From a virus (Duplodnaviria; Caudoviricetes): DNA of 64,000 bases. Positions within the stretch are counted from its first letter, which is position 1, and each line of letters starts with the position of its first letter. The notes below the pieces were generated by a model. It worked only from the letters and a program-made list of their open reading frames with translations. It made no database searches and was not told the origin of the DNA. Shown one piece after another: positions 2,840 through 54,700 of the stretch. Made by a program: the position numbers and the translations under genes. The stretch lies in IMG/VR virus record IMGVR_UViG_3300036045_000513, positions 1,201 to 65,200 of that record, one strand, 5' to 3'.

Positions 2840-3028
2840 GTATGGAAGCGAGCTTTGAACGGGCAGCGGTGCGAGCGTGCGTACCAGTTGGTTCTCGTTT
2901 TCCCCAAGGATGCCCGAACAGGTATCCGCATCGCCGACAATAGGCGTAGTGAATCTTCCCGTCGCTGTAGTTGCGGTCCTGATGCCAGAACACGCCGCAT
3001 AGCCACTGCACCAATCGCGGGCGCGCCT

Positions 3029-3787
3029 TCATGTGCATGGCGTTGCCCATTCATCCCCCCCTCCGGAGGCATCGCCTCCTGTCTCCCTCGTCGCGCACAT
3101 CGCCAGCAGCGCGGGGCCGTACTGCTTCCAGAACGCGAGCGCTTGGTCGTCCATCAACTTGATCCGCGAATCCTTGAACTTCCGCCACTCCTCGAACGAG
3201 TGCAGCTCGCACCCGATCTGCATGTGCGAGTCGAGGATGTAGACCTGCCAGTAGTTCGGGATGGAGATGGCGATCGGCGCCCGCTGGATGGTGAGCGGAC
3301 CCCACTTGCAATTCTTCAGGCTTGCGCCGACTAGCCTTGCGCCGTCGAGCCTTGCGCCGTCTAGCCTTGCGCCGTCGAGGATTGCGCCGACTAGCCTTGC
3401 GCCGTCGAGCCTTGCGCCGACTAGCCTTGCGCCGTCGAGGATTGCGCCGACTAGCTTTGCGCCGTCGAGCCTTGCGCCGTCTAGCCTTGCGCCGTCGAGG
3501 ATTGCGCCGACTAGCTTTGCGCCGTCGAGCCTTGCGCCGTCGAGGATTGCGCCGACTAGCCTTGCGCCGTCGAGCCTTGCGCCGTCTAGCCTTGCGCCGT
3601 CGAGGATTGCGCCGACTAGCCTTGCGCCGTCGAGGATTGCGCCGTCTAGCCTTGCGCCGTCGAGGATTGCGCCGTCGAGGATTGCGCCGCTCTTTACCGC
3701 CGCCTCAACGCACAGTTTCAGCGAGCCGCATTCCAGCGCAAACAGCACGCGGCCATCCCATCGGGACTTGATCTCGAACATCGGCAT
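3029..3787 (-). CDS. pentapeptide-repeat protein
   Basis: Many GA(R/I/K)L(D/V) pentapeptides (15-nt period, about 3320-3690); C-terminal IGCELHSFEEW. Confidence 0.9.
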   Translation of the reverse strand: MPMFEIKSRWDGRVLFALECGSLKLCVEAAVKSGAILDGAILDGARLDGAILDGARLVGAILDGARLDGARLDGARLVGAILDGARLDGAKLVGAILDGARLDGARLDGAKLVGAILDGARLVGARLDGARLVGAILDGARLDGARLDGARLVGASLKNCKWGPLTIQRAPIAISIPNYWQVYILDSHMQIGCELHSFEEWRKFKDSRIKLMDDQALAFWKQYGPALLAMCATRETGGDASGGGDEWATPCT

Positions 3788-4044
3788 CAGTCGTTGCCTC
3801 CTGGCTGCATGGCGGCGTCGATCAACTCATCGACGTGATTGCGGACGAAGTTGACGGCAGCGGCGATGAGGCGCACGTCGCCCTCAGTCAGTCGAGAGGT
3901 GAGCCCGACAACGATGGCGTCCTTGCTGTGCCCGCCGAGCACGCCCCAACGGCCGTCGTCGAGATACTGCGATTCGGCCCACGGCCCCGGCGTAGCTTTC
4001 TCCGCCAGCTTCACGAGCGATTCGAGGTCGGAAAGCATGGTCAT
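3787..4044 (-). CDS. Ead/Ea22-like protein
   Basis: LVKLAEKATPGPW...LIAAAVN motif. Confidence 0.7.
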   Translation of the reverse strand: MTMLSDLESLVKLAEKATPGPWAESQYLDDGRWGVLGGHSKDAIVVGLTSRLTEGDVRLIAAAVNFVRNHVDELIDAAMQPGGND

Positions 4045-5048
4045 GACGGGTAGTCCCTCACGCGCAAATCTTCGGGCCACTCGGAGGGGTCACCGCCCTT
4101 GCGATCGCGCAGGTACACGCGCCAGTAGCCGCGCCCGGTGTCCTCATGGCGCGGCACCTCGAAGTCCGGCCAGTGCTCCTCGGCGTTCTGGTGGCCGTCC
4201 CAGGCGACGTGGGAGCCGAGTTGCTTGACGAACGCCGCAACACCCGCCGCCTTGCACTGGCGCACGATGTCGCGCGCCCACCGAACATCGAACGGCCGCG
4301 CGCCGGGGCCGGACTCGCCTCCGACGATGATCCAGTCAAGGCGCGCCTCCTGCTGCACGCCGTAGCCGTCACGCGACTGGCCGCGCAGTGCGTCGATGTC
4401 ATGCCGGCCACGTCGGACTTTGGTGAAATCCACGAGCCAGAGTGCCGGCTCGTAGCTAACGAACCGCACCGCCGCCGGCGTCTGCAGCAGCAGCGGGATC
4501 CGCTCGTCGGCGCGCTCTTGGTCCTCTACCGACACGCCGAGCCAGACATGGGGCAGAGGCCCAAGCAAGACCTTGCCGGTCGGAAACTGCTTGCCGGTGC
4601 GCTCCGAGTACATCTGTCGCGCTCGGCCGTCGATGAAGCCCCATCGCCCGAAGTTGTCCTCGGTCATGTAGCGCAGCATCCGCTCTGGCCGCTTCGTGAG
4701 TATCTGGAAAGTGTGCTGCGGGGAGAGCGCGATTGCGGCGAAAACTCGGTCGATGAAGGCGTCCGGCACGTACTCATGGAACAGGTCGCTCATCGAGTTG
4801 ACGAACACCCGCCGCGGCTTCTTCCACCGCAGCGGCGTGTCGAGCAGCTCGGGCACCAGGCGCACCTTGCCGGTCCACACCGGCCCGCCGCGCGAGAGCT
4901 TCGTCAGCCCCTCGTAGGGGGCGTCCGGGCCGCTGAACCGATGCGCCTGCTTCATCGCGTAGCAGTTGGTGCAGCCGGGCGACACGATCGAGCAGCCGCG
5001 CACCGGATTCCAGACGGCATCGGTCCACTGGATCGACGTTTCAGCCAC
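4041..5048 (-). CDS. phage Gp37/Gp68 (DUF5131) family protein
   Basis: TSIQWTDAVWNPVRGCSIVSPGCTNCYA, VFVNSMSDLFH, LTKRPER, WIIVGGESG, FVKQLG. Confidence 0.92.
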   Translation of the reverse strand: MAETSIQWTDAVWNPVRGCSIVSPGCTNCYAMKQAHRFSGPDAPYEGLTKLSRGGPVWTGKVRLVPELLDTPLRWKKPRRVFVNSMSDLFHEYVPDAFIDRVFAAIALSPQHTFQILTKRPERMLRYMTEDNFGRWGFIDGRARQMYSERTGKQFPTGKVLLGPLPHVWLGVSVEDQERADERIPLLLQTPAAVRFVSYEPALWLVDFTKVRRGRHDIDALRGQSRDGYGVQQEARLDWIIVGGESGPGARPFDVRWARDIVRQCKAAGVAAFVKQLGSHVAWDGHQNAEEHWPDFEVPRHEDTGRGYWRVYLRDRKGGDPSEWPEDLRVRDYPS

Positions 5049-5331
5049 GGTTCATCGCCTCGATCGTTGCTGCGAGAAGGTCCATCTCATCGAGTTTCGT
5101 GCGCGCGTAGAAGCTTTTGAGGCGGTGGATGCCGAGGGGGCCTTGATGATGTTGCCAGCACAGAGGCGTACCAAGCCAATCCTCTGCGCGCTGCGCTGCC
5201 CCTTCACCTTCGCGTGGGTGATGTATCTCGACGCCACCGTTGTTCGCGAAGCACTCCGCCCCGAAACCGAGTCGCTCCATGATGCAGCCGAGTTCTCGGA
5301 CTCTTTCCCGGTAGCGCTGCCCGGCGCTCAT
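5041..5331 (-). CDS. Ref-like (RecA-dependent) HNH-type nuclease
   Basis: VRELGCI...VEIHH.REG.G..QRAEDW..TPLC..HHQG..GIH pattern of P1 Ref homologues. Confidence 0.75.
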   Translation of the reverse strand: MSAGQRYRERVRELGCIMERLGFGAECFANNGGVEIHHPREGEGAAQRAEDWLGTPLCWQHHQGPLGIHRLKSFYARTKLDEMDLLAATIEAMNRG

Positions 5332-5735
5332 CTCGCGAGATACCCCGGCACCAGGCGCTCGAGCGCCTCGATCCTCGCGATGATCTCGGCCCGCCTCGGG
5401 CGGCCGTGCGAGAGGGCGTGCACAGCATCGTGGAGCAGGCCACAGTCGTCGAGTACATCGCCAGCTTTCAGGAGGCCGCCGGCGATCGCCAACTGGCAGA
5501 GGAACGTGAGCGCGTGGATGGCGTCGAGCGCTTGGCGCTTCGTAGGGCTGCGCCGACGGAAGTGGGCCGACGCTGGCATCGTTGCTGTGCCGCGCGGGTT
5601 CGGCATGTTGGACCACAGACCCATCACCGTTTCGCCGAGGCCGCGGCGCTTTGCGATGCGCCGGGCATGGCTCCACGAGCGCCCCCACACCTGCGAGCTG
5701 TAGCCGTTCGCGTACTCGGTGAGGTACCAGGGCAT
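5328..5735 (-). CDS. hypothetical protein directly downstream of the tas-like gene
   Basis: MPWYLTEYANGYSSQVWGRSWSHARRIAKRRGLGETV...; starts 2 nt after the tas-like stop. Confidence 0.65.
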   Translation of the reverse strand: MPWYLTEYANGYSSQVWGRSWSHARRIAKRRGLGETVMGLWSNMPNPRGTATMPASAHFRRRSPTKRQALDAIHALTFLCQLAIAGGLLKAGDVLDDCGLLHDAVHALSHGRPRRAEIIARIEALERLVPGYLAR

Positions 5736-5737
5736 CG

Positions 5738-6562
5738 CTATTCGTCGGCGACCGCCGCAGGCGCCTCGATCAGATGCGCGTGGTTCATGATCGCGATCGC
5801 ATAGGGCAGCACGACGGGCAGGCCGGCAAGTTTTCGCCCCGTTTCGACGTAGTGAGCCAGGAACAGCTTGACCGCGTAGCGCTTCGCGCGACTGTGCAGA
5901 TGGCCGTCGGGGAGCCTGCCATCGCGGTACGTCTTTGCCTGCGCGTGAGTCGGTCGCGCCGCCAGCACGGCCTTTGCCTGCTCCGCGTACTCGCCGCGCT
6001 CGTTCTTCTGCCCCTCGAGCTCGCGGCGGGCTGCGTAGACCTTGCCGTACACGTCGTTCGGGTTGCCCTTCACCTTCACGAAGCTCTCGCCGATCTTCCA
6101 GCACAGCGTCTTGAGGCTCGCGTTGTGCGGGCGCTTCTGGCCGCGCTCCCACCGCGATGTCGGATCAAGCCCCGCGAAACGCCAAACATGCCCGGCAGTC
6201 GGCGCTCGCGTGACGTCGATGTGGGCGAGGAGGCCGGCGGCGATCACCGGGCCGATTCCCACGATCGAGCGCGCCCACTCGCCGAGAGGCTGCGATGCGC
6301 TGTACCTGTCGAGCGCGCGGGCAATCTGCCCTTCGAGTGAGTCCGACTGCGTCGCGAGCCACGCGATCACGGTATGCGGCTCCCCGGACTCCGAGAGGGC
6401 TCGGGCTTGATTGCCGGCGCGGATGCGGTCGCGCTGCATCATGTAGTAGGCGTCGACGAGGAATCGCGCTTCGTCGGCGCTCAACGACGTCGAGCTCGCA
6501 GCAAGGTCGCGCGTCAGGCGCTCGACCGAAACGAGTGCTTCCGGTTCAGTGCGGTCGTTCAT
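5738..6562 (-). CDS. TasA-like Nop/IS110-related RNA-binding protein without a nuclease domain
   Basis: Coiled coil (YYMMQRDRIRAGNQ...LEGQIARAL) then IVGIGPVIAAGLLAHID...AGHVWRFAGLDP, N..LKTLCWKIGESF, HLHSRAKRYAVKLFL; no DEDD RuvC or HNH domain; adjacent to a dual-repeat array. Confidence 0.85.
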   Translation of the reverse strand: MNDRTEPEALVSVERLTRDLAASSTSLSADEARFLVDAYYMMQRDRIRAGNQARALSESGEPHTVIAWLATQSDSLEGQIARALDRYSASQPLGEWARSIVGIGPVIAAGLLAHIDVTRAPTAGHVWRFAGLDPTSRWERGQKRPHNASLKTLCWKIGESFVKVKGNPNDVYGKVYAARRELEGQKNERGEYAEQAKAVLAARPTHAQAKTYRDGRLPDGHLHSRAKRYAVKLFLAHYVETGRKLAGLPVVLPYAIAIMNHAHLIEAPAAVADE

Positions 6563-6564
6563 TG

Positions 6565-6897
6565 TGGACGCTCCTGGTCTCTGGTTCTCTCGGCGCTGCG
6601 GGCTCGCTCATAGATCATGGTGCACTCCGTCACCCTGGCTCGCTCACCTATCGTGGCACTCTCTGCGGTCATGACTCGCTCGCGCTGTCTGGCTCTCTCA
6701 TGATCAGTGGCTCGCTCTCGCCGACTGGCTCTCTCGTACAGCATGGCTCGCTCACCATGGATGGTTCACTTCGCCGCTCTGGCTCGCTCGCGGGGATTGG
6801 CTCTCTCGCATGGAATGGCTCGCTCCCGAATCGTGGCGCTCTCTGAGCCTTTGGCTCGCTCCGCTGATATGGCGCCCTCACAGTCTTTGGCTACACC
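6565..6897 (-). ncRNA. TIGR-like dual-repeat guide-RNA array (about 9 units of 36 nt)
   Basis: Exact 18-nt period from 6582 to 6888; repeat A GAGCGAGCCA alternates with looser repeat B GAGAGAGCCA-like; 18 unique 8-nt spacers. Confidence 0.88.
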
Positions 6898-7268
6898 TTG
6901 AACCCCTCACGCTTCGTCCGTTCGACGTAGTCGTCGGTGAGCGGGTCGTGCACCGCCTCGTCCTCGCGGGCCCGCTGGATGACCTCGATGCGCCTCTCGA
7001 TCCCGCGGCGGATGGTTTCCTTCGTGACGTAGTTCAGGATCCACGTCGCCCGTGCGAGCCAGATGGGAGGGCCGTCGCCCGGGGCGACGAACAGGCCCTC
7101 GCCGGACTCGTAGGCTTTGCGCTTCGCGGCGCCCAACCCGCCGGGGAAGTAGATCAGCTGCACCAGCGCCTCGTTGCGGGCGACATCCCACCCGACGATC
7201 TCGCGCTCGCCGTTCTCGTAACTGATTTCGGAGAAGTCGACGATGACGTTCGGCCTGATGATTCCCAT
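6891..7268 (-). CDS. hypothetical protein immediately upstream of the array
   Basis: GAGGAG RBS then MGIIRPNVIVDFSEISY...; stop codon lies inside the first degenerate repeat; alternative GTG start at 7406. Confidence 0.7.
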   Translation of the reverse strand: MGIIRPNVIVDFSEISYENGEREIVGWDVARNEALVQLIYFPGGLGAAKRKAYESGEGLFVAPGDGPPIWLARATWILNYVTKETIRRGIERRIEVIQRAREDEAVHDPLTDDYVERTKREGFKV

Positions 7269-7402
7269 GCGCTCCTCGACGAGGTAGGTTGCGCGCGGCG
7301 CGCGCTCGATGCAGCCGCGGACGTACTGGCGTGGTTCCTCGGTCGACCATGCGACGACAGCTGCCGCGCCGACAACAGCGCCAACAGCGCGGTCGCCCCA
7401 GG

Positions 7403-7549
7403 TCACGCGCGGGCTCCGGTGAGCCACGCCGGCATCAGCCGGCGCACCGCCGCGGCACGGCGCAGCCGGCGCTTCGCGCGCGCCCGTCGACGGCGATCGC
7501 CATCGGGATTCGCGCGCCGCCAGCGGCGCATCTCCTCGGCCTTGGTCAC
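7403..7549 (-). CDS. 48-aa Arg-rich peptide, possibly an N-terminal remnant of an HNH gene
   Basis: VTKAEEMRRWRRANPDGDRRRRARAKRR...MPAWLT; GTGA coupling. Confidence 0.4.
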   Translation of the reverse strand: MTKAEEMRRWRRANPDGDRRRRARAKRRLRRAAAVRRLMPAWLTGARA

Positions 7550-7764
7550 ACGTCGTCCTGGCGGGTGCCCTTGTACTTCGCGCGAATTTCACGGGCGAAG
7601 AACGAGCCGATGCTCTCGGCGCCGCAGCACTTCTCGTGCAGGTCCTTCGGCACCCCGGGGTAGTGGTAGGTCCCGCCGCCCTTAAACGTCACGGCGAGCG
7701 TTTCGGTGGCCTCGTCATAGCCGACGTGGGACAGCATTTTCGAGTCGACCTTGCGCATTTCCAT
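7546..7764 (-). CDS. KTSC domain protein
   Basis: VDSKMLSHVGYDEATETLAVTFKGGGTYHYPGVP...AESIGSFFAREIR. Confidence 0.9.
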   Translation of the reverse strand: MEMRKVDSKMLSHVGYDEATETLAVTFKGGGTYHYPGVPKDLHEKCCGAESIGSFFAREIRAKYKGTRQDDV

Positions 7765-7765
7765 G

Positions 7766-8665
7766 TCACTTCCCTCCTGTGCTCTGGCCGATGGGCCGGT
7801 TGACGGCAACGAGCCCCGGCACGTTGAACGCGGTTTCCTGCGCCTTCGCAGTCCCGTTGATCGCCTTCCAGTCGAGCGCGAGGTAGGCGACAAGCTCCGG
7901 GCGCTCGGCGAGCGCAGCGGCGATCAGGCGGATCGCGGCCTTGTCGTCGACGACCCCTTGCGCCAGCTGCCCCACGAAGTTCTTGCGCTGCGAGTACCCG
8001 GCGACCTTGGGGGCCTCGATCGGTGCGACGATCGGCGCCGCGGCGGCGAGGATCGCGGTCTGCGCCTTCTGCTCGCCGCGCTCGAGCGCCTGGCGCTCCT
8101 TCTCGTTGAGCGCCGCGGCTTCGGCTGCGGCCTTTGCTGCCGCCTTGGCGTTGCCTTCCTCCTCGGCTTTGCGGCGCGCCGCTTCGGCGGCTTCGGCCTG
8201 CCGGCGCACCTCGGCGGCTTCGGCGTCGGCCTTGGCACGCGCGGCCGCGGCTTCCTGCTCGGCCTTCTCGCGCGCCTTGCGGTTCTCATCTTCGATCCGG
8301 CGGCGCTCCGCGTCGACCTTCGCCTGCTCGTCGGCGATGTACTTGTCGATCTTCTGGCCGTAGATCGTCGCGGCGCGCTCCGCCGACCGCGCGAAGGGGA
8401 CAAAGAAGCCGTTGGTGTTCCGCTCGGCCACCCGTAGCGGCTCGGTGATCGAGAGGCGCGTGGCATCGAGGTCCTTTGCGAGCTGCCGAGCCTCGCGGCG
8501 CTGCTGCTGCGCGAAGTCGGCCATCTCCTTGCAGTCGATCACGAAGCCTTCGGCCTCCTGGACCACCACGCCGGCGCGGGCGACCATGCGCGTGGCCTCG
8601 GGGGTCATCGCGACCCGCGCGACCTGGGGCTCGAAAGTAGTCGGAGCGGTGACGGTGTTGTTCAT
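7766..8665 (-). CDS. Ala/Glu/Lys-rich coiled-coil protein of the recombination module
   Basis: LDATRLSITEPL, long EAAA helix, C-terminal FNVPGL; AGGAGG RBS. Confidence 0.7.
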   Translation of the reverse strand: MNNTVTAPTTFEPQVARVAMTPEATRMVARAGVVVQEAEGFVIDCKEMADFAQQQRREARQLAKDLDATRLSITEPLRVAERNTNGFFVPFARSAERAATIYGQKIDKYIADEQAKVDAERRRIEDENRKAREKAEQEAAAARAKADAEAAEVRRQAEAAEAARRKAEEEGNAKAAAKAAAEAAALNEKERQALERGEQKAQTAILAAAAPIVAPIEAPKVAGYSQRKNFVGQLAQGVVDDKAAIRLIAAALAERPELVAYLALDWKAINGTAKAQETAFNVPGLVAVNRPIGQSTGGK

Positions 8666-8993
8666 GCTGTAGCCTCCTTGACGTGCGCCCATGCCTCCCC
8701 GCGCACAATTTTGCTGATCGTCGTTTGATAGACCCCGAATGCAGCAGCGAGGTCTACTTGCCTCTCGCCGGGCGCACGCAAAAGCCGACATCGCAGCGGT
8801 GCAGCACGTGCAGCCCGTCCGGTACATCGCCGTTCGCGATCTCCCAAGAAAGGCGGTGCGCCTTGTGCACGCGCCCCGCCAAGTTGAACGCGCCATAACG
8901 GTAGGCGGTGTCCTTGCCGATCCAGAGCCAGCACTCAAAGCCTGGCACTCTCTCCACGAACCGCCAGAAATCGTCAACCGTGTTTGGTCGCAT
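8662..8993 (-). pseudogene. HNH endonuclease remnant (internal deletion and frameshift)
   Basis: FWRFV..CWLWIG...AHRLSWEIANG.VPDGLHVLHRCD..CVRP stops early; HTH tail GERQVDLAAAFGVYQTTISKIVRG is in another frame. Confidence 0.75.
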
Positions 8994-9591
8994 GAAGTTC
9001 TATCCCGGCGTTGTGAATCGTGAGGCACGCCAGGAACACGGCCTCGTCGTTCGGATCGGTGAATTCGGGGAAGCGGTACGTCCCGTTGTCGTTGAGGACG
9101 AGCGCGTGCCGCCGGCGTATGCGTTGCAGCGGGAACTCGCGCTCCCACAGCATCTTGTACGCGGCTAATTGGTAGCCGATCGCCCGGCCGGCGTAGAGCG
9201 AGCGCTTCGCGTCGATCAGCCGGCGCTCGCCGTGCACGTACCCCACGATGTCGAGCGTCCCGCCGACCCGCAGCCGCGGGCAGGCCATGCGGTACTCGGC
9301 CACGATCGGCTCGAACTCGGTTTCCCGCTTGAACTTGCACCACGCCGCGTAGCGCGGGGCGAGCCACAGCGGCAGGCCGTCGACGTCGAGCTCGCCGCGG
9401 ATGTCGAGCTCCACCATCGCGTGAATCGCCCTGCCTTCGTCCTGGGCCCGCCGCAGCACCTCCTGCGGGATGTGGCTGTAGTCGGTGAGGCTCGACAGGA
9501 CGCCGGTCACGTGCGGGATGACACGACCGTCGAGGCGGTAGGTATGCGTGGCCTCGTCGAAGTCGAGGCGCGGGGCGGGGACGGCGCTCAT
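8974..9591 (-). CDS. PD-(D/E)XK exonuclease (recombination)
   Basis: FDEATHTY.LDG..IPHVT, GRAIH, GGTLDIV..LIDAK, YQLAAY; paired with the SSAP gene. Confidence 0.85.
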   Translation of the reverse strand: MSAVPAPRLDFDEATHTYRLDGRVIPHVTGVLSSLTDYSHIPQEVLRRAQDEGRAIHAMVELDIRGELDVDGLPLWLAPRYAAWCKFKRETEFEPIVAEYRMACPRLRVGGTLDIVGYVHGERRLIDAKRSLYAGRAIGYQLAAYKMLWEREFPLQRIRRRHALVLNDNGTYRFPEFTDPNDEAVFLACLTIHNAGIELHATKHG

Positions 9592-10484
9592 GCCGCCTTC
9601 CCGGGGTTCGCCTTGATCCAGTCGAGCACGTCGTTCACCTTGGCGAAGGTGATGTGGTCGATCTCGCCCCACTGCCCGGCGAGATCGAGTTCGGACAGCG
9701 CGGCGCGCTTGAGCGCTGCGCGGATCATCGACTTCGCGCCCTCGGTGATCGGTTTCCCGTTCCCGTTGGCACCCGCCGGCGCCTCGCCCGCCGGCGGGTG
9801 CTCTTGCTGCCCCGTCTTTGGAGCCGCCTCACCCGGGGAGGTCGGGCGCGACGGCGTTTGCGAGGAGGGCTCGGTGCGTTTCTGAGGCTGCTCCACCGTG
9901 ACCGTGGCGGTTGGCGTTACGTCGATCGGCTCGCCCGGCGCCATGTCGGCGACTTCCTCCGGGGTGTAGATGCCGGCCGCGCCAAGGCAGGCCGGGTAGA
10001 CGGTGCGCACGCCCTCGCTGATGCAGCGAGAGCGGAACATTTCGCGCGACCAGTAGCGGTAGTTCGCCTTGTCGGCGAGCGGCTCCCACGCCTCCTTCTT
10101 GCTGTTCCAGCTCTTGACCTTGTTCGCCCTCGCCATGTCCCACCTGACGCGGACCGAACCGCCAACCGGGTGAGAGAACGTCGCCTCGGATCCGTCATCA
10201 CCGTAGGCGTGCCACTCCACCTTGCCGCCAGCGCGCTGAAAGCGCGCGAGCATCGCCTCGGCCTTGCGGGCGGCGCGGCCTTGGATGATGTGGTACTCCT
10301 GCGCCGCGGTCGCTGGGTGCAGGCCCTCGGCCTGGGCGATCAGGCAGAGCGCGAGCGCCTGCTCTGGCGTTTCCATGCCGAAGAGCTTCGACTTCGCGAT
10401 CGCGAGCGCCATCTTCTCGAGCTCGGCGTACGAGAACTGCTGCGCCGGCAGCGCCGGCTGCGCGTAGACGACGGGCGCGTTCAC
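9588..10484 (-). CDS. RecT-like single-strand annealing protein
   Basis: MALAIAKSKLFG..TPEQALAL..IAQAEGLHP..YHIIQGR..KAEAMLARF, MFRSRCISEGVR, GIYTPEE. Confidence 0.85.
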   Translation of the reverse strand: MNAPVVYAQPALPAQQFSYAELEKMALAIAKSKLFGMETPEQALALCLIAQAEGLHPATAAQEYHIIQGRAARKAEAMLARFQRAGGKVEWHAYGDDGSEATFSHPVGGSVRVRWDMARANKVKSWNSKKEAWEPLADKANYRYWSREMFRSRCISEGVRTVYPACLGAAGIYTPEEVADMAPGEPIDVTPTATVTVEQPQKRTEPSSQTPSRPTSPGEAAPKTGQQEHPPAGEAPAGANGNGKPITEGAKSMIRAALKRAALSELDLAGQWGEIDHITFAKVNDVLDWIKANPGKAA

Positions 10485-10684
10485 GGCTTCACCTCCTTGG
10501 GCTTCCTGATGAGAGGCCGGACCTTCTCCGCGCGTTCTGCGGCATCGGCCTTCGCGATCGCAGCCAGGCGCCGCTTCTCGCGCGCGATGGTGTCGGCGAC
10601 GTTCGTGGCGGCGCTCGAGCGCCACTTGAACGCCCGGGACAGGATCGACACCCGGGGCTTGGGACGGCTGGTTTCGTCGGTCAT
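10481..10684 (-). CDS. first gene of the leftward operon, small basic protein
   Basis: SILSRAFKWRSSAATNVADT; directly follows the PL-like promoter. Confidence 0.65.
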   Translation of the reverse strand: MTDETSRPKPRVSILSRAFKWRSSAATNVADTIAREKRRLAAIAKADAAERAEKVRPLIRKPKEVKP

Positions 10685-10693
10685 GGTGCCACG

Positions 10694-10767
10694 ACGATAC
10701 CAAGCCACAAACGACTAGTCAAGCCACAGACGGCTATTTTCGAGCGGACAGTAGCCGCGACCGGCTT
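10694..10767 (-). promoter_or_regulatory. PL-like promoter with three operators
   Basis: TTGACT(10722-10717)-17 nt-TATCGT(10699-10694); AGCC-N6-G(G/A)CT palindromes at 10702, 10721, 10752. Confidence 0.75.
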
Positions 10768-10779
10768 GAACCTTGACGA

Positions 10780-10971
10780 CTACCTGACGATGCGGAGTTT
10801 CGGGCGGCGGGACGCCTGGCGGGGCGCCTTGGGCGCCGCGGCGGGGTCGATGGAGGCCACGAACCGGACGAAGTCGTGGACGACCGCGCGCTGCTCGGGG
10901 GTCATCCCGCGCAGGGTCGCGCAGATCGCTTCGGCTTCCTCCGAACCGAGCGGATCGAGTATTTCTTTCAT
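10780..10971 (-). CDS. small hypothetical protein downstream of the repressor
   Basis: 63 aa, ends ...PKLRIVR. Confidence 0.5.
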   Translation of the reverse strand: MKEILDPLGSEEAEAICATLRGMTPEQRAVVHDFVRFVASIDPAAAPKAPRQASRRPKLRIVR

Positions 10972-11007
10972 GTGCGCGTCAATCTAACACGCACCACCGG
11001 CCTATCG

Positions 11008-11028
11008 TTACCTGTCATGGACAGGTAA
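11008..11028. repeat. 9-bp inverted repeat
   Basis: TTACCTGTC-ATG-GACAGGTAA just after the repressor stop. Confidence 0.6.
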
Positions 11029-11036
11029 TGCGTGAC

Positions 11037-11420
11037 TTACTTCACGTTTCTCGGCGGCTTGGGTTTTCGCTGCGACGAGCTCGGTTCCTCTATGCCGAGG
11101 AGGCGGTCGACGCCTTCCAGGATTCGCAGCAGTTCGTCCAGCTTGTCCGTCGGCACCCGGTCGATGATTCCCCAGATGCGGTCCTCGAGCGCGGTGCGGC
11201 GGTTCTCCTCCGCGGGCTCGATCAACCGCCAGGGCGGAACGCCGAGGGCGCGCGCGATCGCGTCGAGCGTGTAGAGGGTGGGGTTCCCTTCGAGGCGGTA
11301 GAGGCGCCCCAAGGCGCCCTGACCGAGTTTCGACAGCCGGCCGAGCTCAGCTTGAGTCCGGCCACCGCTGTCGATCGCTGCCTTGATCCGCCGGTGTAGC
11401 AGCTCGAACGAGCTAGCCAT
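11037..11420 (-). CDS. CI-like XRE HTH repressor (no S24 peptidase domain)
   Basis: TQAELGRLSKLGQGALGRLYRLEGNPTLYTLDAIARALGVPPWRLI; divergent from a cro-like gene. Confidence 0.85.
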   Translation of the reverse strand: MASSFELLHRRIKAAIDSGGRTQAELGRLSKLGQGALGRLYRLEGNPTLYTLDAIARALGVPPWRLIEPAEENRRTALEDRIWGIIDRVPTDKLDELLRILEGVDRLLGIEEPSSSQRKPKPPRNVK

Positions 11421-11444
11421 AGGCAGCATTGTGTCGGGATCTAC

Positions 11445-11488
11445 CGGCCATGTGAGGCTTGCGCGTAGAAGCCGTCTATGGCTAGAAT
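11445..11488 (+). promoter_or_regulatory. PR-like promoter with two operators
   Basis: TTGCGC(11459)-18 nt-TAGAAT(11483); operators GGCC-ATGTGA-GGCT and AGCC-GTCTAT-GGCT. Confidence 0.7.
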
Positions 11489-11496
11489 GTCCCGCC

Positions 11497-11775
11497 ATGC
11501 AGACCGATTACGACTATGTGATGGAGCGGCTAGCTCAGAAGAAGGGGCAGTGGCCGTCGATCGCGGAAGCAAGCGGGGTTCCCAAGGACACGCTGGTCAA
11601 GGTCGCGCAGGGCAAGACCGACCCGCGGGCGTCCACGGTCGATCGCCTCGTTCGCTACTTTCGCGGCATCGAAGTACCCGCTGACGTTCCAGCCGGCGCC
11701 GGCGAGCAGCAGCCCGCAGCCGGCGGCGATCAGCCAGCGCCGCCCCGCGGGCAGGCGGTAGCCGAGCCGCGCTGA
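11497..11775 (+). CDS. Cro-like HTH protein
   Basis: WPSIAEASGVPKDTLVKVAQGKTDPRASTVDRLVRYF; probably a leaderless mRNA. Confidence 0.85.
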   Translation: MQTDYDYVMERLAQKKGQWPSIAEASGVPKDTLVKVAQGKTDPRASTVDRLVRYFRGIEVPADVPAGAGEQQPAAGGDQPAPPRGQAVAEPR

Positions 11776-11850
11776 ACCAAGGGTCACCGGCACGAAGCAG
11801 ACGGCGGTCGCCGCCAGCCAGAACCCGAAGAGGCCGAGCCAGGTGGACAT
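11530..11850 (-). CDS. possible two-TM membrane protein antisense to cro
   Basis: MSTWLGLFGFWLAATAVCFVPVTLG...WLIAAGCGLLLAGAGW. Confidence 0.35.
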   Translation of the reverse strand: MSTWLGLFGFWLAATAVCFVPVTLGSARLGYRLPAGRRWLIAAGCGLLLAGAGWNVSGYFDAAKVANEAIDRGRPRVGLALRDLDQRVLGNPACFRDRRPLPLLLS

Positions 11851-12040
11851 GGGAAACGGTCAGCGTAGCACGTCGAGGGGAACGCAGCCGATGTACGTCG
11901 GGCGCTCCCTCGCCTTGGAGAGCCGGACCTGATGGAGCCGCGCGCGGTCGCAGGCGGGCTTGTCCGGGTAGACGCCGAGGTTCACGCCGGTCGTGTCGGT
12001 CGGCGAGAGCACCACTAGGGCCACGAGGAGGTACGTCACG

Positions 12041-12355
12041 ATGACGACAGTCTCGATTGGTCAGTTGGAAAGGGCGCGCAAGAATTTCTCCGCGATCTTG
12101 TCTCGCCTTGCGAGTGTCGGACAATCCAACGTCGCCAAGGAGTTAGGCGTCGCCGAGTCGACGATCAGTCGGCTGAAATCTGAGGGCGACCTCGAGCAGT
12201 TCGCCAAGCTCCTCGCCGCGGTTGGCCTCAAGGCGGTGCCGGTCGAACTGCGCTGCTACGACCCGAAGGACATCGACCCGCTGCTTCAACTCGCCCGGCG
12301 CCATCTCGCCCAGGTGGCGAGCGCCGAGCAACTCGCGTTCGACGACCCGGAGTAG
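12041..12355 (+). CDS. CII-like transcription activator
   Basis: ERARKN..ILSRLASVGQSNVAKELGVAESTISRLK..LAAVGLKAVP; GAGGAGG RBS. Confidence 0.85.
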   Translation: MTTVSIGQLERARKNFSAILSRLASVGQSNVAKELGVAESTISRLKSEGDLEQFAKLLAAVGLKAVPVELRCYDPKDIDPLLQLARRHLAQVASAEQLAFDDPE

Positions 12356-12360
12356 GGCGT

Positions 12361-13263
12361 GTGCCGGGGGACTGGATGAAGGTCGAGCTCTCCACCATCG
12401 ACAAGCCCGAGGTCCTCGGTATCGCCCGGCGCCTCGGCGTCACGCGCGACGACGCGCTCGGCAAGGTGATCCGCCTGTGGGGGTGGTTCAACGCCCATTC
12501 TGTAGACGGTATTGTAGTCGGCGCTGTAGACGCTGATATAGACGCGCTCGTTCTACACGAAGGCTTCGCGACAGCGCTGCGCGAGGTCGGATGGCTCGGC
12601 GACGACCCCGCCGGCCGCGGCGTCGGCATCCCGAAGTTCGATCGCCACACCAGCGAAAGCGCGAAGAATCGGGCACTTAAGGCCGAACGACAGGCGCGTT
12701 GGCGCGACGGTCGTGTAGACGGTCCTGTAGACGATTCGGCGTCTACGCCTCTCTCTCTTAGTAGTTCTTCTTCCTTGAAGGGGGATGCAAGGGGGAAACA
12801 GCGCGCGACGGGCCCGCTGTTCGTCCCGCCGGGGTGGATCCCTGGTCCGGTGTGGGATGCCTTCGAGGCGATGCGCCGGAAGATCCGCAAGCCGATGACC
12901 GAGCGGGCGCGCGAGCTCGTCGTAATCGAGTTGGAGAAGCTACGCGCCGCCGGCGAGGATCCGGTCGCGGTGCTCGAGCAGTCGATCCGCAACGACTGGC
13001 AGGACGTCTACCCGGTGAAGCTGAAGGCCGGCAGCGGCGCGGCTATCGCGCCGCTCGACCGCGCGCAGTGGTGGCGCTCGCCGGAGGGGGTCCGCGTCAA
13101 GGCCGCCGAGTACGGCCTCGTGAGCAGCGGCGACATCGTGCCCCTTCGGGCGCGGGTGTACCTCCGCGCCGGCGACGGGCCGTGGCTGCACGACAGCCGG
13201 TTCTGCAACGCCACCGTGAAGCGGCTGATGGAGGAAATCGCGCGCGAGGAGGCCCCGGCGTGA
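12361..13263 (+). CDS. phage replication initiator protein
   Basis: MPGDWMKV..DKPEV..LGKVIRLWGWF, PKFDRH.SESAKNRA; C-terminal WDAFEAMRRKIRKPMT..VLEQSI.NDWQ. Confidence 0.8.
   Translation: MPGDWMKVELSTIDKPEVLGIARRLGVTRDDALGKVIRLWGWFNAHSVDGIVVGAVDADIDALVLHEGFATALREVGWLGDDPAGRGVGIPKFDRHTSESAKNRALKAERQARWRDGRVDGPVDDSASTPLSLSSSSSLKGDARGKQRATGPLFVPPGWIPGPVWDAFEAMRRKIRKPMTERARELVVIELEKLRAAGEDPVAVLEQSIRNDWQDVYPVKLKAGSGAAIAPLDRAQWWRSPEGVRVKAAEYGLVSSGDIVPLRARVYLRAGDGPWLHDSRFCNATVKRLMEEIAREEAPA
12501..12746 (+). repeat. putative origin iterons
   Basis: TGTAGACG-like octamers at 12501, 12513, 12525, 12537, 12714, 12726 (12-nt spacing), inverted copy near 12740, then a pyrimidine-rich tract. Confidence 0.6.
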
Positions 13264-40161: not shown

Positions 40162-40494
40162 GTGGCGATCACCAACCAGTCGATCGTCGACATGGCAAGG
40201 GTCGACGTGAACGACGCGGCGAAGGATCGCCACTCGGACGCGAACGGGATGGCGTACCTGAACGACTTCATCCAGCTCGCCTACTCGGTGCGGCCGGATC
40301 TTCGCTTCGGGTCCGGATGGCCGGCGGTGACCGACCTCGCCATCGGCGCCAACTTCCCGCTGTCCGAGAAGTACCGGCAGGCCGCCGCGGCCTACGTCGT
40401 TGCCAGGTGGGAAGCGAAGGATGACGAGCACAGCATCACGGCGCGCTTCGCCACGATGCTGAAACTCGGAATCGACGGGGTCAGGGGCCTGTGA
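40162..40494 (+). CDS. head-tail adaptor-like protein
   Basis: ARVDVND...RHSD..YLND...VRPD, YVVARWE.KDDE. Confidence 0.65.
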   Translation: MAITNQSIVDMARVDVNDAAKDRHSDANGMAYLNDFIQLAYSVRPDLRFGSGWPAVTDLAIGANFPLSEKYRQAAAAYVVARWEAKDDEHSITARFATMLKLGIDGVRGL

Positions 40495-41363
40495 CCGCGC
40501 TCACCGCGTTCTACGACAAGGTCGTCAGCGACCTCGCGGGATGTGAGCCGGCGTTCGCCCTGAGCTACATCCGCGACGCCGCGATCGAGTTCTTCCAGCG
40601 TTCTAGGACCTGGCGCGAACCGAGCGCGCCGATCACCCTGAAGTACGCCGCAATCAGCGGGATCACGAAGGCGAACCCCGGCGTCGTCACCGCGACCGGG
40701 CACCCGTTCGCGAACGGGGAGAGCGTGCTGCTCGCCAACGTCGGCGGCATGGTGCAGGTGAACGGGTACCTTTTCACTGTTGCGAGCGCGGCCGCAAACA
40801 CGTTCGCGCTCGGCGTCGACACCTCCACCTTCGGCACCTTCACGAGTGGCGGTGACGCGGCGCAGGCCGCTGTGCTCGTCGCCTCCCCGACTGCCGGCGC
40901 CGTCATCTCGGACGTCACCGACGGCGCCAACTACTACGGCCGGCAGGTCGATCCGCTTGCGGTGCTCGAGCTCAAGGAGCGCTACGGCGCGATGTGGCGC
41001 CACCTCATCGGCGAGCCGCGGACTGTCCACATGACCGACGAGGCCGGCACTTGCCGCTTCGTGCCGGCGCCAGGCGAGACGCTGCGCAACTTCGTGCAGC
41101 TAGAGCTGGCGCTGAAGCCCGCGCAGGACGCGACCACGCTCCCGGACGCGATCTACGACCGTTACCGCGAGGACATCGAGTTCGGCGCCCGGGCCAAGCT
41201 CCGGGCCCTTCCCGACAAGCCGTGGTCGAACGCGGAAGTCGCGATGGCGCTGGAAGCCGAGTTCAATCGGCGGATCAGTCTCGCCCGCAACCGCGTGATG
41301 CGCTCCCGCACCCGGGGGCCGATCACCGCGGTTCCGGTGTCGTTTGAAACCCCCGACTGGTGA
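40491..41363 (+). CDS. adaptor/tail protein with an inserted FCCH-like domain
   Basis: IRDAAIEFF.RS..WR, ITKANPGVVTATGH, LALKP, I.FGA.A.L..PDKPWSN. Confidence 0.7.
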   Translation: MTALTAFYDKVVSDLAGCEPAFALSYIRDAAIEFFQRSRTWREPSAPITLKYAAISGITKANPGVVTATGHPFANGESVLLANVGGMVQVNGYLFTVASAAANTFALGVDTSTFGTFTSGGDAAQAAVLVASPTAGAVISDVTDGANYYGRQVDPLAVLELKERYGAMWRHLIGEPRTVHMTDEAGTCRFVPAPGETLRNFVQLELALKPAQDATTLPDAIYDRYREDIEFGARAKLRALPDKPWSNAEVAMALEAEFNRRISLARNRVMRSRTRGPITAVPVSFETPDW

Positions 41364-41375
41364 AAGGAGGGTGTC

Positions 41376-42071
41376 GTGCTGGAGAGCCTCGATCCCGTCA
41401 CCGACGCGGAAGCTCGCCGGTTCACCACGATCGTGAAACTCGTGTCGTGGGGCGCTTGGTTCCTCGTCGTGGCGCTCGTCATCTTGCTGCCGGCGCTGTT
41501 CTTCTTCGCCGGCAAAGCACGCGCCGACGACACGGCGATCATGCTGGTGGCCTCGGCCGACCTCGATCAGCCGCAGTGGCAGCGCACCGTGGTCGTGGTG
41601 ACGCGGATGCCATCCGGCGGACACCTCGGCCTCATCGTGAACCGGCCGACGAAGATGACGATGGCGAAGCTCTTCCCGGACTTCGCCCCCGCCCGGAACG
41701 TCCGCGAGCCCATCTACTTCGGCGGGCCGCACCACACCGACATGGTCGCGATGGTGGCGAAGCGCGAGCCGAACGGGCCGCATCAGATCCGGCTGATGCC
41801 GGGCGCCACGCTCACCTTCCGCGCCGACACGATAGACGAGCAACTCACGCGCGCTCCGAACGAGGCCCGGTACTTCGTCGGGGTCGTGGTCTGGATGCCA
41901 GGCGAGATGGAGTCCGAGGTCGATCGAGGGTTCTGGCTGCAGGCGCCGGCACCATCCAACGCCCTGTTCGTGCGCGACACCTCACGGATGTGGGAGGACA
42001 TGCACCGCGCGGCGCGAGGAACGAAGGTCGAGGCACCGACGTTCGCGCCGCTCCTCGGTATCCGGGGGTGA
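41376..42071 (+). CDS. YqgE/AlgH (DUF179) family protein with an N-terminal TM/signal segment
   Basis: LVAS..L..P.WQRTVV..GLIVNRP, PIYFGGP, RYFVG...W.PGE.ESEV..G.W. Confidence 0.8.
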   Translation: MLESLDPVTDAEARRFTTIVKLVSWGAWFLVVALVILLPALFFFAGKARADDTAIMLVASADLDQPQWQRTVVVVTRMPSGGHLGLIVNRPTKMTMAKLFPDFAPARNVREPIYFGGPHHTDMVAMVAKREPNGPHQIRLMPGATLTFRADTIDEQLTRAPNEARYFVGVVVWMPGEMESEVDRGFWLQAPAPSNALFVRDTSRMWEDMHRAARGTKVEAPTFAPLLGIRG

Positions 42072-51784: not shown

Positions 51785-54700
51785 ATGGCAGAGCAGTTCC
51801 TCGGGTTCCTCGACGAGCCCGGCGGCCCCGCTTCGCCTGCTGCGGCACCGGAGCGCCCGGCGCCAGCGCGCGACCGCGCCTCGGCCGCCGAGCGCGACCT
51901 CCGCTCGCGGATGTTCACCCCGGAGGAGAGCGACCAGATCCTCGCGCGCGAGGTGCAACCCGACGCCCGCGCGGCGTTCCGGCGCGCGATCGACGCCGAG
52001 CGCGACCCGAAGGCCAAGGCCATCCTGCTGTCCGAGTACGAGCGCGACGCCGAGCGGGCGACCCGACTTGCCGGGCAGACGCCAGCCGCCACCGGTGACC
52101 AGCCCATCGAAGAACCAACCGCCGAAACCATGCCGGTCCGCGCGCCGCGCGCGCGCCGCGTCGCTGCGCCGGCAACGCGCCACGTCCCCGAGCTCGTCGG
52201 TTTCCTCGACGACCGCCCGCTCGAGGAGCCCGCCGCCGCGAAGCCGAAGCCCGCCGGGGCCGGTCTCGGTACTCGGATGGCCGACCTCGGCGTGTCGGCC
52301 GCCGCCGGCGTCGGCTCGCTGGTCGAGATGGGCGGGACGATCGCCCGCCTCGCCACCGGCGAGGACAACTTCGTCAGGCAGTTCGGCGAGGAGGTCCGGG
52401 AGTATTGGGAGGGCCGGAAGTCCGAGGACCTGAAGGCCCGTGAGCAGACCCGGCGCCAGCGGATCGACTCGACAGAGGGCGAGTTCGGGAAGGCCATCGC
52501 CGCGATCAGCGCCACGATCAGCGATCCGCCGCTCTTCGCGGCGTTCCTCGCGGAGCAGATCCCGCAGTTCATCCCCGGCATGGCGGTCGGAAGGGCGCTG
52601 ACGGGCGTCGCCACGGCACTGAAAGCCGGCGAAGCGGCTACCCGCGCGGCTGGCATCGGCGGCGCTGTAGCGGCCGGCGCAGCCTTCCAGGGCGCTGACA
52701 TCGCCGGCGACACGATCGAGCGGCTGCTGAAACTCCCGGACCACGTGTGGGCGCAGCACCCCGGCTTCGCCGCGGCGGTTGCCGCCGGCGAGGATCCCGC
52801 CGCGGCGAAGCAGCGCATCGCCACGCAGGAGGGCCGGCAGGCGTTCGCGCTCGCCGGCGCGGTGTCCGCGCTCGCGCAGGCGATCCCCGGCGGGACGACG
52901 ATCGAGCGCGTCCTAGCGGGAGTCGGCGGCCGCGGCGGCGGGTTCCTCCGCGGTGCCATCAAGGGGCTCGTCGGCGAGGGGATCTCGGAAGGGGTCGAGG
53001 AGGGCAGCGGGCAGGCGATCGCCAACCTCGGCGTCCAGTCGGTCGACCCGTCGCAGTCGCTCACGCAGGGTGTCGGCGAGGCCACTGGCCTTGGAACTCT
53101 CATGGGCGGCACGTTCGGCGGTGCGCTGGGTGGCTTCCAGCGCCCGGGAGAACCGCCGCGGGCGAAGCCGAAGGACGAGGATGGCGCGGTCCCGGTCGAG
53201 GAGGTGCTCGGCCCGCAGCCCGGTCAATCGGGTGGTGGCGCGACTGTCGACCGGAATCAAGCCGCTACGGTCGCCAGCAACCTCATGCCGGTGCCGGTGC
53301 AGGTCTCGCAGCCGACGCAGGAGGAGCAGCAGCGTCAAGCGGTTGACCGGCTGACCGAAATCGAGGCTCGCGAGCGCGAGCTCAGTCAACTCGTCGCCGA
53401 GGGCAACACCGACACCTCGGACGACATGGCAAAGCTCCGCGCGGCGAACGCCAAGGTGGAGTTCCGCGTGCTCGAGCGGGAGCGCCGGCAGATCGTCACC
53501 GCGATGGGCGGCGAGAACGCCGCGCGCGACGTGATGGCCGGTTCACGGCCGGTGATGCAAGTGAGCGCTGACGGCGAGGCGAGCCCGGTGGAGGCGGCTG
53601 GCCCGGTAGGAGCCGGGACTTCGCTCAGTTCACCCCCAGGATCGCTCAGTACGCCGCCGGCGGCCGTCGAAACCCCCGAGGACGCCCCCACACCGGCCGA
53701 GCTCAAGGCCGAGGCGCTGAGCCAGAAGCGTTCGGAGATTGCCAAGCGCGAGGCCGCGAAGCGAGCCAAGATCGACATCGGCAAGGACTCGCTCCTCACC
53801 GCCATCGCCAAGCTGGGCGGCCTGAAGCGCGACCAGGCGATCGGAGAATGGGGCCTCGATCCGAAGGGCATCCCGAAGTCCGGCCTGTTCGGCCGGCCGA
53901 TCCTGCGGGCGACCGGCGGCAACACTCTCGACGCGATGGGCGAGAAACTCGCCGAGCTCGGCTACCTGCCGGTCGACGAGCACGGGAAGCACGACCTCGC
54001 CTCGTTCGAGGCCCTGCTGGACCGCGAGCTCCGCGGCGAGCCGCAGTACACCCCCGAGGGGTGGGAAGCGCGCGCGCGCGCCGAGCGTGAGGCCGAGGTG
54101 CCGGAGGCAGAAGCCGCGGCGATCGCGCCGCCGCCCGACGTTGCCGCGCTGCCGGCGCCGCAGAGCGAGGAGATCGACGCGCTCGAGCTCAGCCCCGAGG
54201 ACATCGCCGAGTTCGAGCGCCACGACGCTGGCGAGCAGGCGAGCGCCGAGGCGCTGGTCGAGGGCCTGCGCGGCCGATTCGACGGCACCGAGGCCGAGTC
54301 CTTGGTCGACAAACTCATCGAGCGCGCCGCCATCGAAACGCAGGACCAGCCGGCGAGTGCGTTCCATGCTGCTATCATCCGCGGCGTACGAGAGGTCAAG
54401 GCCCGTGCTCAAGATCCCCAAGGACAACCCGCACCGCAAGAGCGCGGTACGGATCGCGAAGCTGGCGAAGCGCCTCCTGCGCGCGGGCCGCCCAAAGGTG
54501 GCCCCGCCGAGCGACCCGCTCAAGAAGAAGCCCCGGCCCTCGAGCTAGCCCCGCAGTCCCCGGACGACCTCCGGCGCCGCGACGACGAATCGAAGGCGCG
54601 CGCCGAAGCGATCCGCAAGGAGCAGGAGCGCGCCGCCGCCCCGCCGCCGGCGGACTTCACGCTCACCGGCTCCGATCGCCCCGCCGATCAGGCGGCCGCG

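Follow-up and report, generated by a model that had tools for sequence, protein, structure and literature searches.

The window analyzed here is a 64,000-nt stretch of DNA, positions 1,201 to 65,200 of the IMG/VR virus record IMGVR_UViG_3300036045_000513 (65.2 kb, classed as a provirus), and all coordinates below are those of the window. Very probably the leftward early operon of this provirus holds a complete dual-repeat TIGR-TasA module, in which nine 36-nt units lie on the tas strand, directly 5′ of a gene of the Tas family. This identity had been proposed in an earlier note made from the sequence letters alone, and it is borne out by a protein family model, by structure comparison, by an edge repeat that matches a published one at nine of ten positions, and by the arrays found beside homologous genes. 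The module has the following two components.

6564..6897, minus strand: dual-repeat TIGR array of 19 ten-nt repeats and 18 distinct 8-nt spacers, which make up nine units of 36 nt
5738..6562, minus strand: tasA, encoding a 274-amino-acid (aa) nuclease-less TIGR-associated protein with a coiled coil and a Nop domain; assigned by Pfam, PHROG, NCBIfam, PDB and Foldseek matches

The array is the only one of its type in the 65.2-kb provirus record, and a single nucleotide separates its end from the ATG of tasA. Printed in an 18-nt register, the minus strand of 6564-6897 forms a strict lattice in which each step consists of a 10-nt repeat and an 8-nt unique spacer. Two types of repeat alternate, the edge type GAGCGAGCCA (6 of 10 copies exact) and the loop type GAGAGAGCCA (3 of 9 copies exact). 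On the plus strand, TGGCTCGCTC is found at 6600, 6636, 6672, 6708, 6744, 6780, 6816 and 6852, with one mismatch each in the copies at 6600 and 6672, and the looser, loop-type repeat recurs from 6582 to 6870 in steps of 36. The 18-nt periodicity, all repeat positions, the two mismatched copies and the nine two-spacer units described in the earlier note were thus recovered from the sequence, and an independent parse returned the same set of 18 spacers in the same order, all different from one another. The array proved longer than the listed repeats, all of which were present, by one truncated repeat at each end. The earlier note had also placed every spacer in a CCA-N8-GAG setting on the minus strand. 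Counted from the parsed spacer list, this is exact for 15 of the 18 spacers and does not hold for the other three; CCA stands at the 3′ end of 16/19 repeats and GAG at the 5′ start of 17/19, and the two boxes are identical between the edge and loop types. The additional repeats are listed below.

6888..6897, minus strand: first edge repeat, 5′-truncated, GGTGTAGCCA; retains only the 3′ half AGCCA and overlaps the TAG stop codon (6891-6893) of the upstream open reading frame (ORF)
6564..6573, minus strand: last edge repeat, GAGCGTCCAC, with a degenerate 3′ half; retains only the 5′ half GAGCG

Because the first repeat keeps only AGCCA and the last only GAGCG, the ends of the array decide which type is edge and which is loop. 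Truncated edge repeats at array ends were described by Faure et al. 2025 (PMC12045711), and the half-repeats at both ends here agree with this published feature of TIGR arrays. Dual-repeat TIGR arrays are defined there by two distinct alternating repeats of 8-12 nt and by short spacers (typically 9 nt, 8 nt in SpTIGR, and at most 12 nt), and further by a box C (CCA) that closes both repeat types at the 3′ end and a box D that opens them at the 5′ end, with covariation between edge and loop. The array at 6564-6897 has two alternating 10-nt repeats, 8-nt spacers, and both boxes on both repeat types, with (G)AG as box D.

The periodicity of the array exceeds chance. Self-identity at a lag of 18 nt is 0.528 across the 334-nt array, and in 1260 other 334-nt tiles of the window it averages 0.312 (standard deviation 0.032) and reaches a maximum of 0.411. 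Tandem Repeats Finder called periods of 36 and 18 at the array, and column entropy is 0.35 bits in the repeat columns vs 1.75 bits in the spacer columns.

The guide RNAs predicted from the array resemble those of SpTasH from Salicola phage CGphi29. Synthetic SpTasH tigRNAs are built of 5 + 8 + 10 + 8 + 5 nt, namely AGCCA, 8 nt, AAGACAACCA, 8 nt and AAGCG (Table S3 of PMC12045711). Cutting after the fifth letter of every edge repeat would yield nine 36-nt RNAs, all with GAGCG at the 3′ end and, bar two one-letter variants, with AGCCA at the 5′ end.

6892-6857, 6856-6821, 6820-6785, 6784-6749, 6748-6713, 6712-6677, 6676-6641, 6640-6605 and 6604-6569, minus strand: nine predicted 36-nt tigRNAs; cut position taken from the published synthetic SpTasH tigRNAs

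The product of tasA was assigned most clearly by the NCBIfam model NF052498.1 ("TIGR-Tas system RNA-guided endonuclease", TIGR_Tas_endo), which matches residues 32-238 with 214.7 bits against a cut-off of 100 (E 1.5e-63). Its sole Pfam match is PF02371, the IS110 C-terminal domain, at residues 98-137 (E 4.3e-06); this is the GIGP...WRFAGL segment in which the earlier note had seen an IS110/Nop fold. The PHROG match is phrog_4285, 'transposase' (1.9e-48). SpTasH is the top match in both the phage collection and the PDB: tblastn against 50,697 phage records placed the TasH of Salicola phage CGphi29 first (E 3e-14), and phmmer against the PDB returned TasH (E 3.3e-16) and TasR (9mty; E 1.2e-15). 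The alignment to TasH begins at TasH residue 123, past the HNH domain. An AlphaFold model built from 52 homologues (pLDDT 88.6, pTM 0.85) is all-helical, with a long N-terminal helical hairpin that accords with the coiled coil noted earlier. When this model was compared by Foldseek, a check that the earlier note had suggested, ranks 1-10 were all TasH or TasR chains (E 3.7e-08 to 6e-07, query TM-score 0.56-0.65), followed by the IS110-family recombinases ISCro4 and IS621 with E-values weaker by about five orders of magnitude. Since the protein has 274 aa, an all-helical model and only PF02371, it has neither space for a nuclease domain, HNH or RuvC, nor any trace of one, as had been read from the letters. 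Sequence and model together thus assign the product to the nuclease-less TasA subtype. The names given by the databases mislead here: Pfam and PHROGs say "transposase", and the NCBIfam equivalog says "endonuclease" despite the lack of a nuclease domain.

The tasA product also keeps a putative processing site. SpTasH Y289 and H296 are the catalytic residues for metal-independent processing of pre-tigRNA (PMC13421893), and dual-repeat systems show conservation of this Tyr/His dyad according to Xu et al. 2026 (10.64898/2026.09.09.750476). Y254 and H261 of the tasA product align with these two residues; among the 52 homologues, H261 is invariant and Y254 is at least 90% conserved. The C-terminal loop that carries them has low pLDDT in the model, as expected of a flexible loop. 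Judged by this alignment, the dyad is retained, with a putative role in guide-RNA processing.

Among the described systems, SpTIGR-TasH (Faure et al. 2025, PMC12045711; PDB 9w03, 9w04 and 21kl) is the closest counterpart. It likewise has 10-nt repeats, 8-nt spacers and 36-nt guides, and its array lies on the tas strand. The edge repeats, AAGCGAGCCA in SpTIGR and GAGCGAGCCA here, are identical at 9 of 10 positions, and both repeat types end in CCA in the two systems. The core of this edge repeat, GCGAGCCA, serves as edge repeat in the TaTasR and ParTasR arrays too (Table S1 of PMC12045711). The Nop domains of SpTasH and the tasA product are 30% identical across 194 residues, the Tyr/His dyad included. 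In contrast, the loop repeats differ (AAGACAACCA vs GAGAGAGCCA), SpTasH has an N-terminal HNH nuclease and cuts DNA whereas the tasA product begins at the coiled coil, and the SpTIGR array lies downstream of tasH with a terminator at its end whereas the present array lies upstream, between the stop codon of the preceding ORF and the start of tasA. The earlier note had suggested a distinct subtype on the ground of the 8-nt spacer. As this spacer length, and with it 16 variable nucleotides, had already been described in SpTIGR (Faure et al. 2025, PMC12045711), it does not support a separate subtype.

FpTasA of Flavonifractor plautii (Faure et al. 2025) is likewise a solo coiled-coil and Nop protein with a dual-repeat array, and it binds 36-nt RNAs (PMC12045711); FpTIGR differs in its 9-nt spacers and its repeats. 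In the available portion of Table S1 (Faure et al. 2025), about 4.0 million characters, the signature peptides of the TasA clade WRFAGLDPT and LCWKIGESFVK occur 1279 and 568 times, respectively, and the exact tasA protein was not found within that portion. The IS110-family bridge-RNA recombinases IS621 and ISCro4 have the Nop-like RNA-binding domain (PF02371) in common with the tasA product. They differ from the present locus, which lacks the DEDD catalytic domain and a bridge RNA and in which many short guides in an array take the place of the one two-loop RNA. The locus is a further member of the known, curated TIGR-Tas family.

We then surveyed homologous loci. In a large protein collection, the tasA product has more than 5000 matches at E ≤ 0.001, and its nearest non-self relative is 77% identical; relatives in genome contigs, at 63% identity or less, come from Acidobacteriota, Halomonas, Propionivibrio, Gemmatimonadota and other groups. 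The survey covered 101 homologous loci (80 viral and 21 genome loci) with at most 3 kb on each side of tas, and the array finder was tuned to the repeat family of the present locus. Arrays on the same strand as tas were found at 61/80 viral and 11/21 genome loci, that is 72/101, and arrays on the opposite strand at 0/101. Of the 73 array-bearing loci (window included), 22 have arrays solely upstream, 39 solely downstream and 11 on either side. When loci sharing spacers were merged, 55 non-redundant arrays remained with 1408 hypervariable spacers, 1341 of them distinct. None of the 1408 is common to the array at 6564-6897, whose spacers are also absent from all other arrays in the 103 fetched loci. 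Homologues with repeats of the same type and different spacers, which the earlier note had proposed to look for, are therefore present. Each of five genes neighboring tasA here was found at 0/101 loci, compared with 101/101 for tasA. As the neighbors are not conserved, the array and tasA behave as a self-contained cassette.

Other explanations were considered for both the repeats and the gene. The earlier note had named as its own counter-explanation a translated hexapeptide repeat with synonymous variation. One such candidate is the GSLxxx frame of the plus strand (6295-6846). The 18-nt period does equal six codons, and most of the array is covered by a 183-aa ORF on the plus strand; this ORF, however, runs antisense to tasA across half its length. 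Furthermore, stop codons interrupt all six frames inside 6564-6897, and the variation falls into contiguous 8-nt blocks with no third-position pattern (entropy by codon phase 0.83/0.98/1.10), which together exclude the translated repeat; we give it practically no weight. The repeats could also act as DNA, such as iteron- or centromere-like sites for a phage DNA-binding protein, with the tas-like gene as a coincidental neighbor. An 18-bp period with a conserved 10-bp core is typical of iterons too, and the phage has an O-like replication initiator (12361-13263). Against this stands the locking of the arrays to the tas strand in the survey, which a pure DNA site would not need. The two alternating repeat types and the half-repeats at both ends are also exactly those of processed TIGR arrays, the edge repeat nearly equals one that is experimentally processed into tigRNA (SpTIGR), and the array and tasA travel jointly among unconserved neighbors. 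We regard a function as DNA sites as extremely unlikely.

As for the gene, the matches to PF02371, to phrog_4285 and to the IS110 transposase model NF033542 (E 1.6e-06) could indicate a truncated IS110-family transposase beside an unrelated satellite repeat. The last of these models fails, however, with 27.5 bits against a cut-off of 140, where the TIGR-Tas model clears its own cut-off more than twofold. The tasA product has no DEDD/RuvC-like N-terminal catalytic domain, Tas structures precede the IS110 recombinases by the margin in E-value given above, and arrays accompany the gene across the family. The family scores by themselves refute a transposase of this kind. Finally, the module might be a decaying relic in which the array and tasA are present and no functional guides are made. 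The repeats that are off consensus (4/10 edge and 6/9 loop copies), the empty target search described below and the array without a promoter or terminator of its own would fit such decay. In contrast, the tasA ORF is intact, with a coding-type G+C content at third codon positions of 0.84, and its product keeps the columns invariant in the 52-sequence alignment, by definition, H261 among them. Most deviations in the repeats leave the CCA and GAG boxes intact, and the array sequence is letter for letter the same in DNA contigs of four public runs on sediment, which represent two samples and two studies. Decay of the module is accordingly judged highly unlikely.

How the TIGR-TasA module might work can be outlined by analogy with characterized relatives. 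TasA proteins bind 36-nt tigRNAs (PMC12045711). In the preprint of Xu et al. 2026 (bioRxiv 10.64898/2026.09.09.750476), a TasA gave reversible, guide-dependent repression of transcription and bound target DNA in an electrophoretic mobility shift assay; the proteins of that study, MbTasA and catalytically dead TasR, are Tas effectors without a nuclease whose RNA-guided DNA binding blocks transcription reversibly, as would the present system. That a target strand consists of spacer A and then the reverse complement of spacer B was taken from TaTasR tigRNA1 and its target oligonucleotides (Table S3 of PMC12045711). At the present locus, the array transcript would be made together with the operon, and TasA would bind it and cut in the middle of each edge repeat, between GAGCG and AGCCA. 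These cuts would release nine tigRNAs of the form AGCCA-spacerA-GAGAGAGCCA-spacerB-GAGCG. A TasA dimer with one tigRNA would then unwind a 16-bp DNA site that reads 5′-spacerA plus reverse complement of spacerB-3′, spacer A pairing with one DNA strand and spacer B with the other. As there is no nuclease, the complex should remain bound as a road-block, and it could, for example, keep a competitor element or a host gene from being transcribed. By this analogy, we infer that 36-nt RNAs, DNA binding and repression would occur at the locus, and that binding without cleavage is the probable mode of action, in agreement with Xu et al. 2026.

Several observations weigh against the assignment of the locus as a working dual-repeat module. 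Box D is GAG or AG here vs UG in TasR, although it is the same in both repeat types and near the AAG of SpTIGR. The repression-competent MbTasA was introduced alongside stem-loop TasR proteins. In the survey, 29/101 homologous loci had no array by the repeat-tuned finder within flanks of at most 3 kb. A promoter and terminator scan found no promoter- or terminator-like site flanking the array, so that its transcription would rely on read-through from upstream; the array is probably co-transcribed with the early operon. A terminator, typical of TIGR arrays, is missing, as the array is placed upstream of tasA.

Target searches, which the earlier note had proposed for phage, plasmid and host genomes, also speak against it, as they gave no match above controls in the provirus, in the array itself or in the fetched loci. 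The 17 adjacent spacer pairs were searched in both pairing geometries, allowing gaps of 0-2, in the complete 65.2-kb provirus after masking of the array. At 0 or 1 mismatch, the provirus yielded no target. Two-mismatch matches numbered 6 for the 17 adjacent pairs vs 240 for 289 mispaired controls, which is below the control rate, and 0/6 combined the published geometry with the correct register. With its own array as the target, 2 matches at 3 mismatches compare with 48 for the 289 controls, and in the 103 fetched loci (616 kb) one match with one mismatch compares with 43 for the controls; neither is above the control level.

Wider searches gave a similar picture. At the family level, 591 related guide pairs were compared with 1.25 million 16-mers from tas neighborhoods and the provirus, and they gave 1 exact and 5 one-mismatch matches, no more than the 6-17 seen for re-paired controls. 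A scan of IMG/VR with guide 1 gave 36 stretches, of which 20 had a gap of 0, 2 a gap of 1 and 14 a gap of 2; many of the stretches are duplicates of the same phages, in unrelated contexts and with G+C contents of 0.25-0.72; we judged these matches to be at chance level. Spacer A and spacer B showed no covariation in 512 pairs, where all 64 position pairs were 21-30% complementary or identical, and the same was seen in 479 cross-edge pairs. The G+C content of the spacers is 59% vs 67% in the provirus, and 1.9% of random draws of 18 8-mers from the provirus were as low, which weakly hints at targets in other DNA. With a specificity of 16 bp, database-wide matching is dominated by chance, and thus the host and its co-resident mobile elements are needed for such a search.

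The junction of the array and tasA holds a further feature.

6571..6575, minus strand: Shine-Dalgarno-like AGGAG (putative function), 8 nt ahead of the tasA ATG; its first two letters come from the end of spacer 18 and its other three from the start of the last edge repeat

This AGGAG is the only Shine-Dalgarno sequence of tasA, and that the last half-repeat forms the putative ribosome-binding site of tasA is one small new point of this analysis. A similar layout, with GGAGCG 6-8 nt before the ATG, is present in two or more further lineages of arrays, the L046 group (L046, L047, L049 and L050, at about 2981-3001) and L065 (at about 2975-3001). A cut in the middle of the last repeat, between GAGCG and TCCAC, would move AGGAG onto tigRNA 9, so that the tasA message would keep a leader of 6 nt and lose its ribosome-binding site. 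Synthesis of TasA would in this case be self-limiting when there is enough protein to process the array, and these cuts would also break the early mRNA upstream. We put forward only tentatively, as a doubtful possibility, that guide maturation is coupled to tasA translation in this way and that the guides silence DNA outside the phage. The last edge repeat is degenerate in its 3′ half, and full edge repeats were needed for the processing of minimal arrays (Faure et al. 2025, PMC12045711), both of which argue against self-limitation.

The locus lies in the leftward early operon of a temperate, lambdoid-organized podophage provirus. The operon runs in the order RecT-like protein, exonuclease, small HNH protein, 299-aa protein, KTSC-domain protein, 125-aa ORF, array, tasA, 135-aa ORF, phrog_1588 protein, DUF5131 protein and pentapeptide-repeat protein, and it diverges from a CII-like regulator and the O-like replication initiator on the other strand. 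One promoter-like site was found in 4800-12400, at 10722-10694 (minus strand) ahead of the RecT-like gene, in a scan where the number of sites was not above that in shuffled sequences. The immediate neighbors of the module are the following.

6891-7268, minus strand: 125-aa upstream ORF; its stop codon lies within the first half-repeat
5328-5735, minus strand: 135-aa ORF that starts 2 nt past the tasA stop codon

In the TasParB-TasA operons of Faure et al. 2025 (fig. S14), a parB-like gene shares the operon with tasA. Neither of the flanking ORFs here has a Pfam, PHROG or NCBIfam match, and a Pfam scan of 50 ORFs of the window showed no ParB family, remote homology at the HHpred level not having been searched. 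Rfam gave no match in 5000-8000, and blastn of the same interval against the phage collection gave none. A search of IMG/VR for sister phages with the 299-aa upstream protein returned no relative. Identity of the large terminase to those of Burkholderia podophages does not exceed 37%.

Several other genes of the window deserve mention. The DUF5131 gene (4041-5048, minus strand, E 1.7e-81) lies about 0.7 kb downstream of tasA, and a homologue is found within 3 kb of tasA in 5/101 loci (L054, L075, L026, L043 and L091); this proximity may come just from a common placement in the early region. The pentapeptide-repeat protein (PF00805, E 7.8e-34) is encoded at 3029-3787 (minus strand) in the same operon. 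Pentapeptide-repeat proteins can mimic DNA, and the gene may be a candidate anti-restriction or gyrase-protecting accessory gene. The small HNH endonuclease (79 aa, PF13392, E 1.4e-07) is a free-standing ORF at 8754-8993 (minus strand), between the exonuclease and the 299-aa protein and 1.9 kb from the array; no homologue of it is seen beside tasA at other loci, in a comparison of neighbors that covered only the other flanking genes. On the plus strand, a giant ORF of at least 4071 aa (51785-64000) runs past the end of the window. It matches InPase (E 4.7e-44), ResIII and DEAD helicases, a Strawberry-notch helicase C-terminal domain and an ADP-ribosyltransferase of the 'polyvalent protein' type, and we take it to resemble a phage polyvalent protein, possibly an injected counter-defense protein. 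In the late region (40491-42071, plus strand), a protein with a ubiquitin-E1 FCCH-like domain (E 7.7e-10) is followed by an AlgH-like DUF179 protein (E 1.7e-27), and these two are unusual passengers amid structural genes.

Taken as a whole, a TIGR-Tas locus was recognizable from raw sequence alone, and the usual annotation labels, transposase and endonuclease, are misleading for a nuclease-free Tas protein. That the ribosome-binding site and the last repeat overlap offers a testable idea on how TasA might limit itself. To the TIGR-Tas family, the locus adds a self-contained array-plus-tasA cassette that a temperate phage carries in its leftward early operon and in which the array is upstream of tasA.

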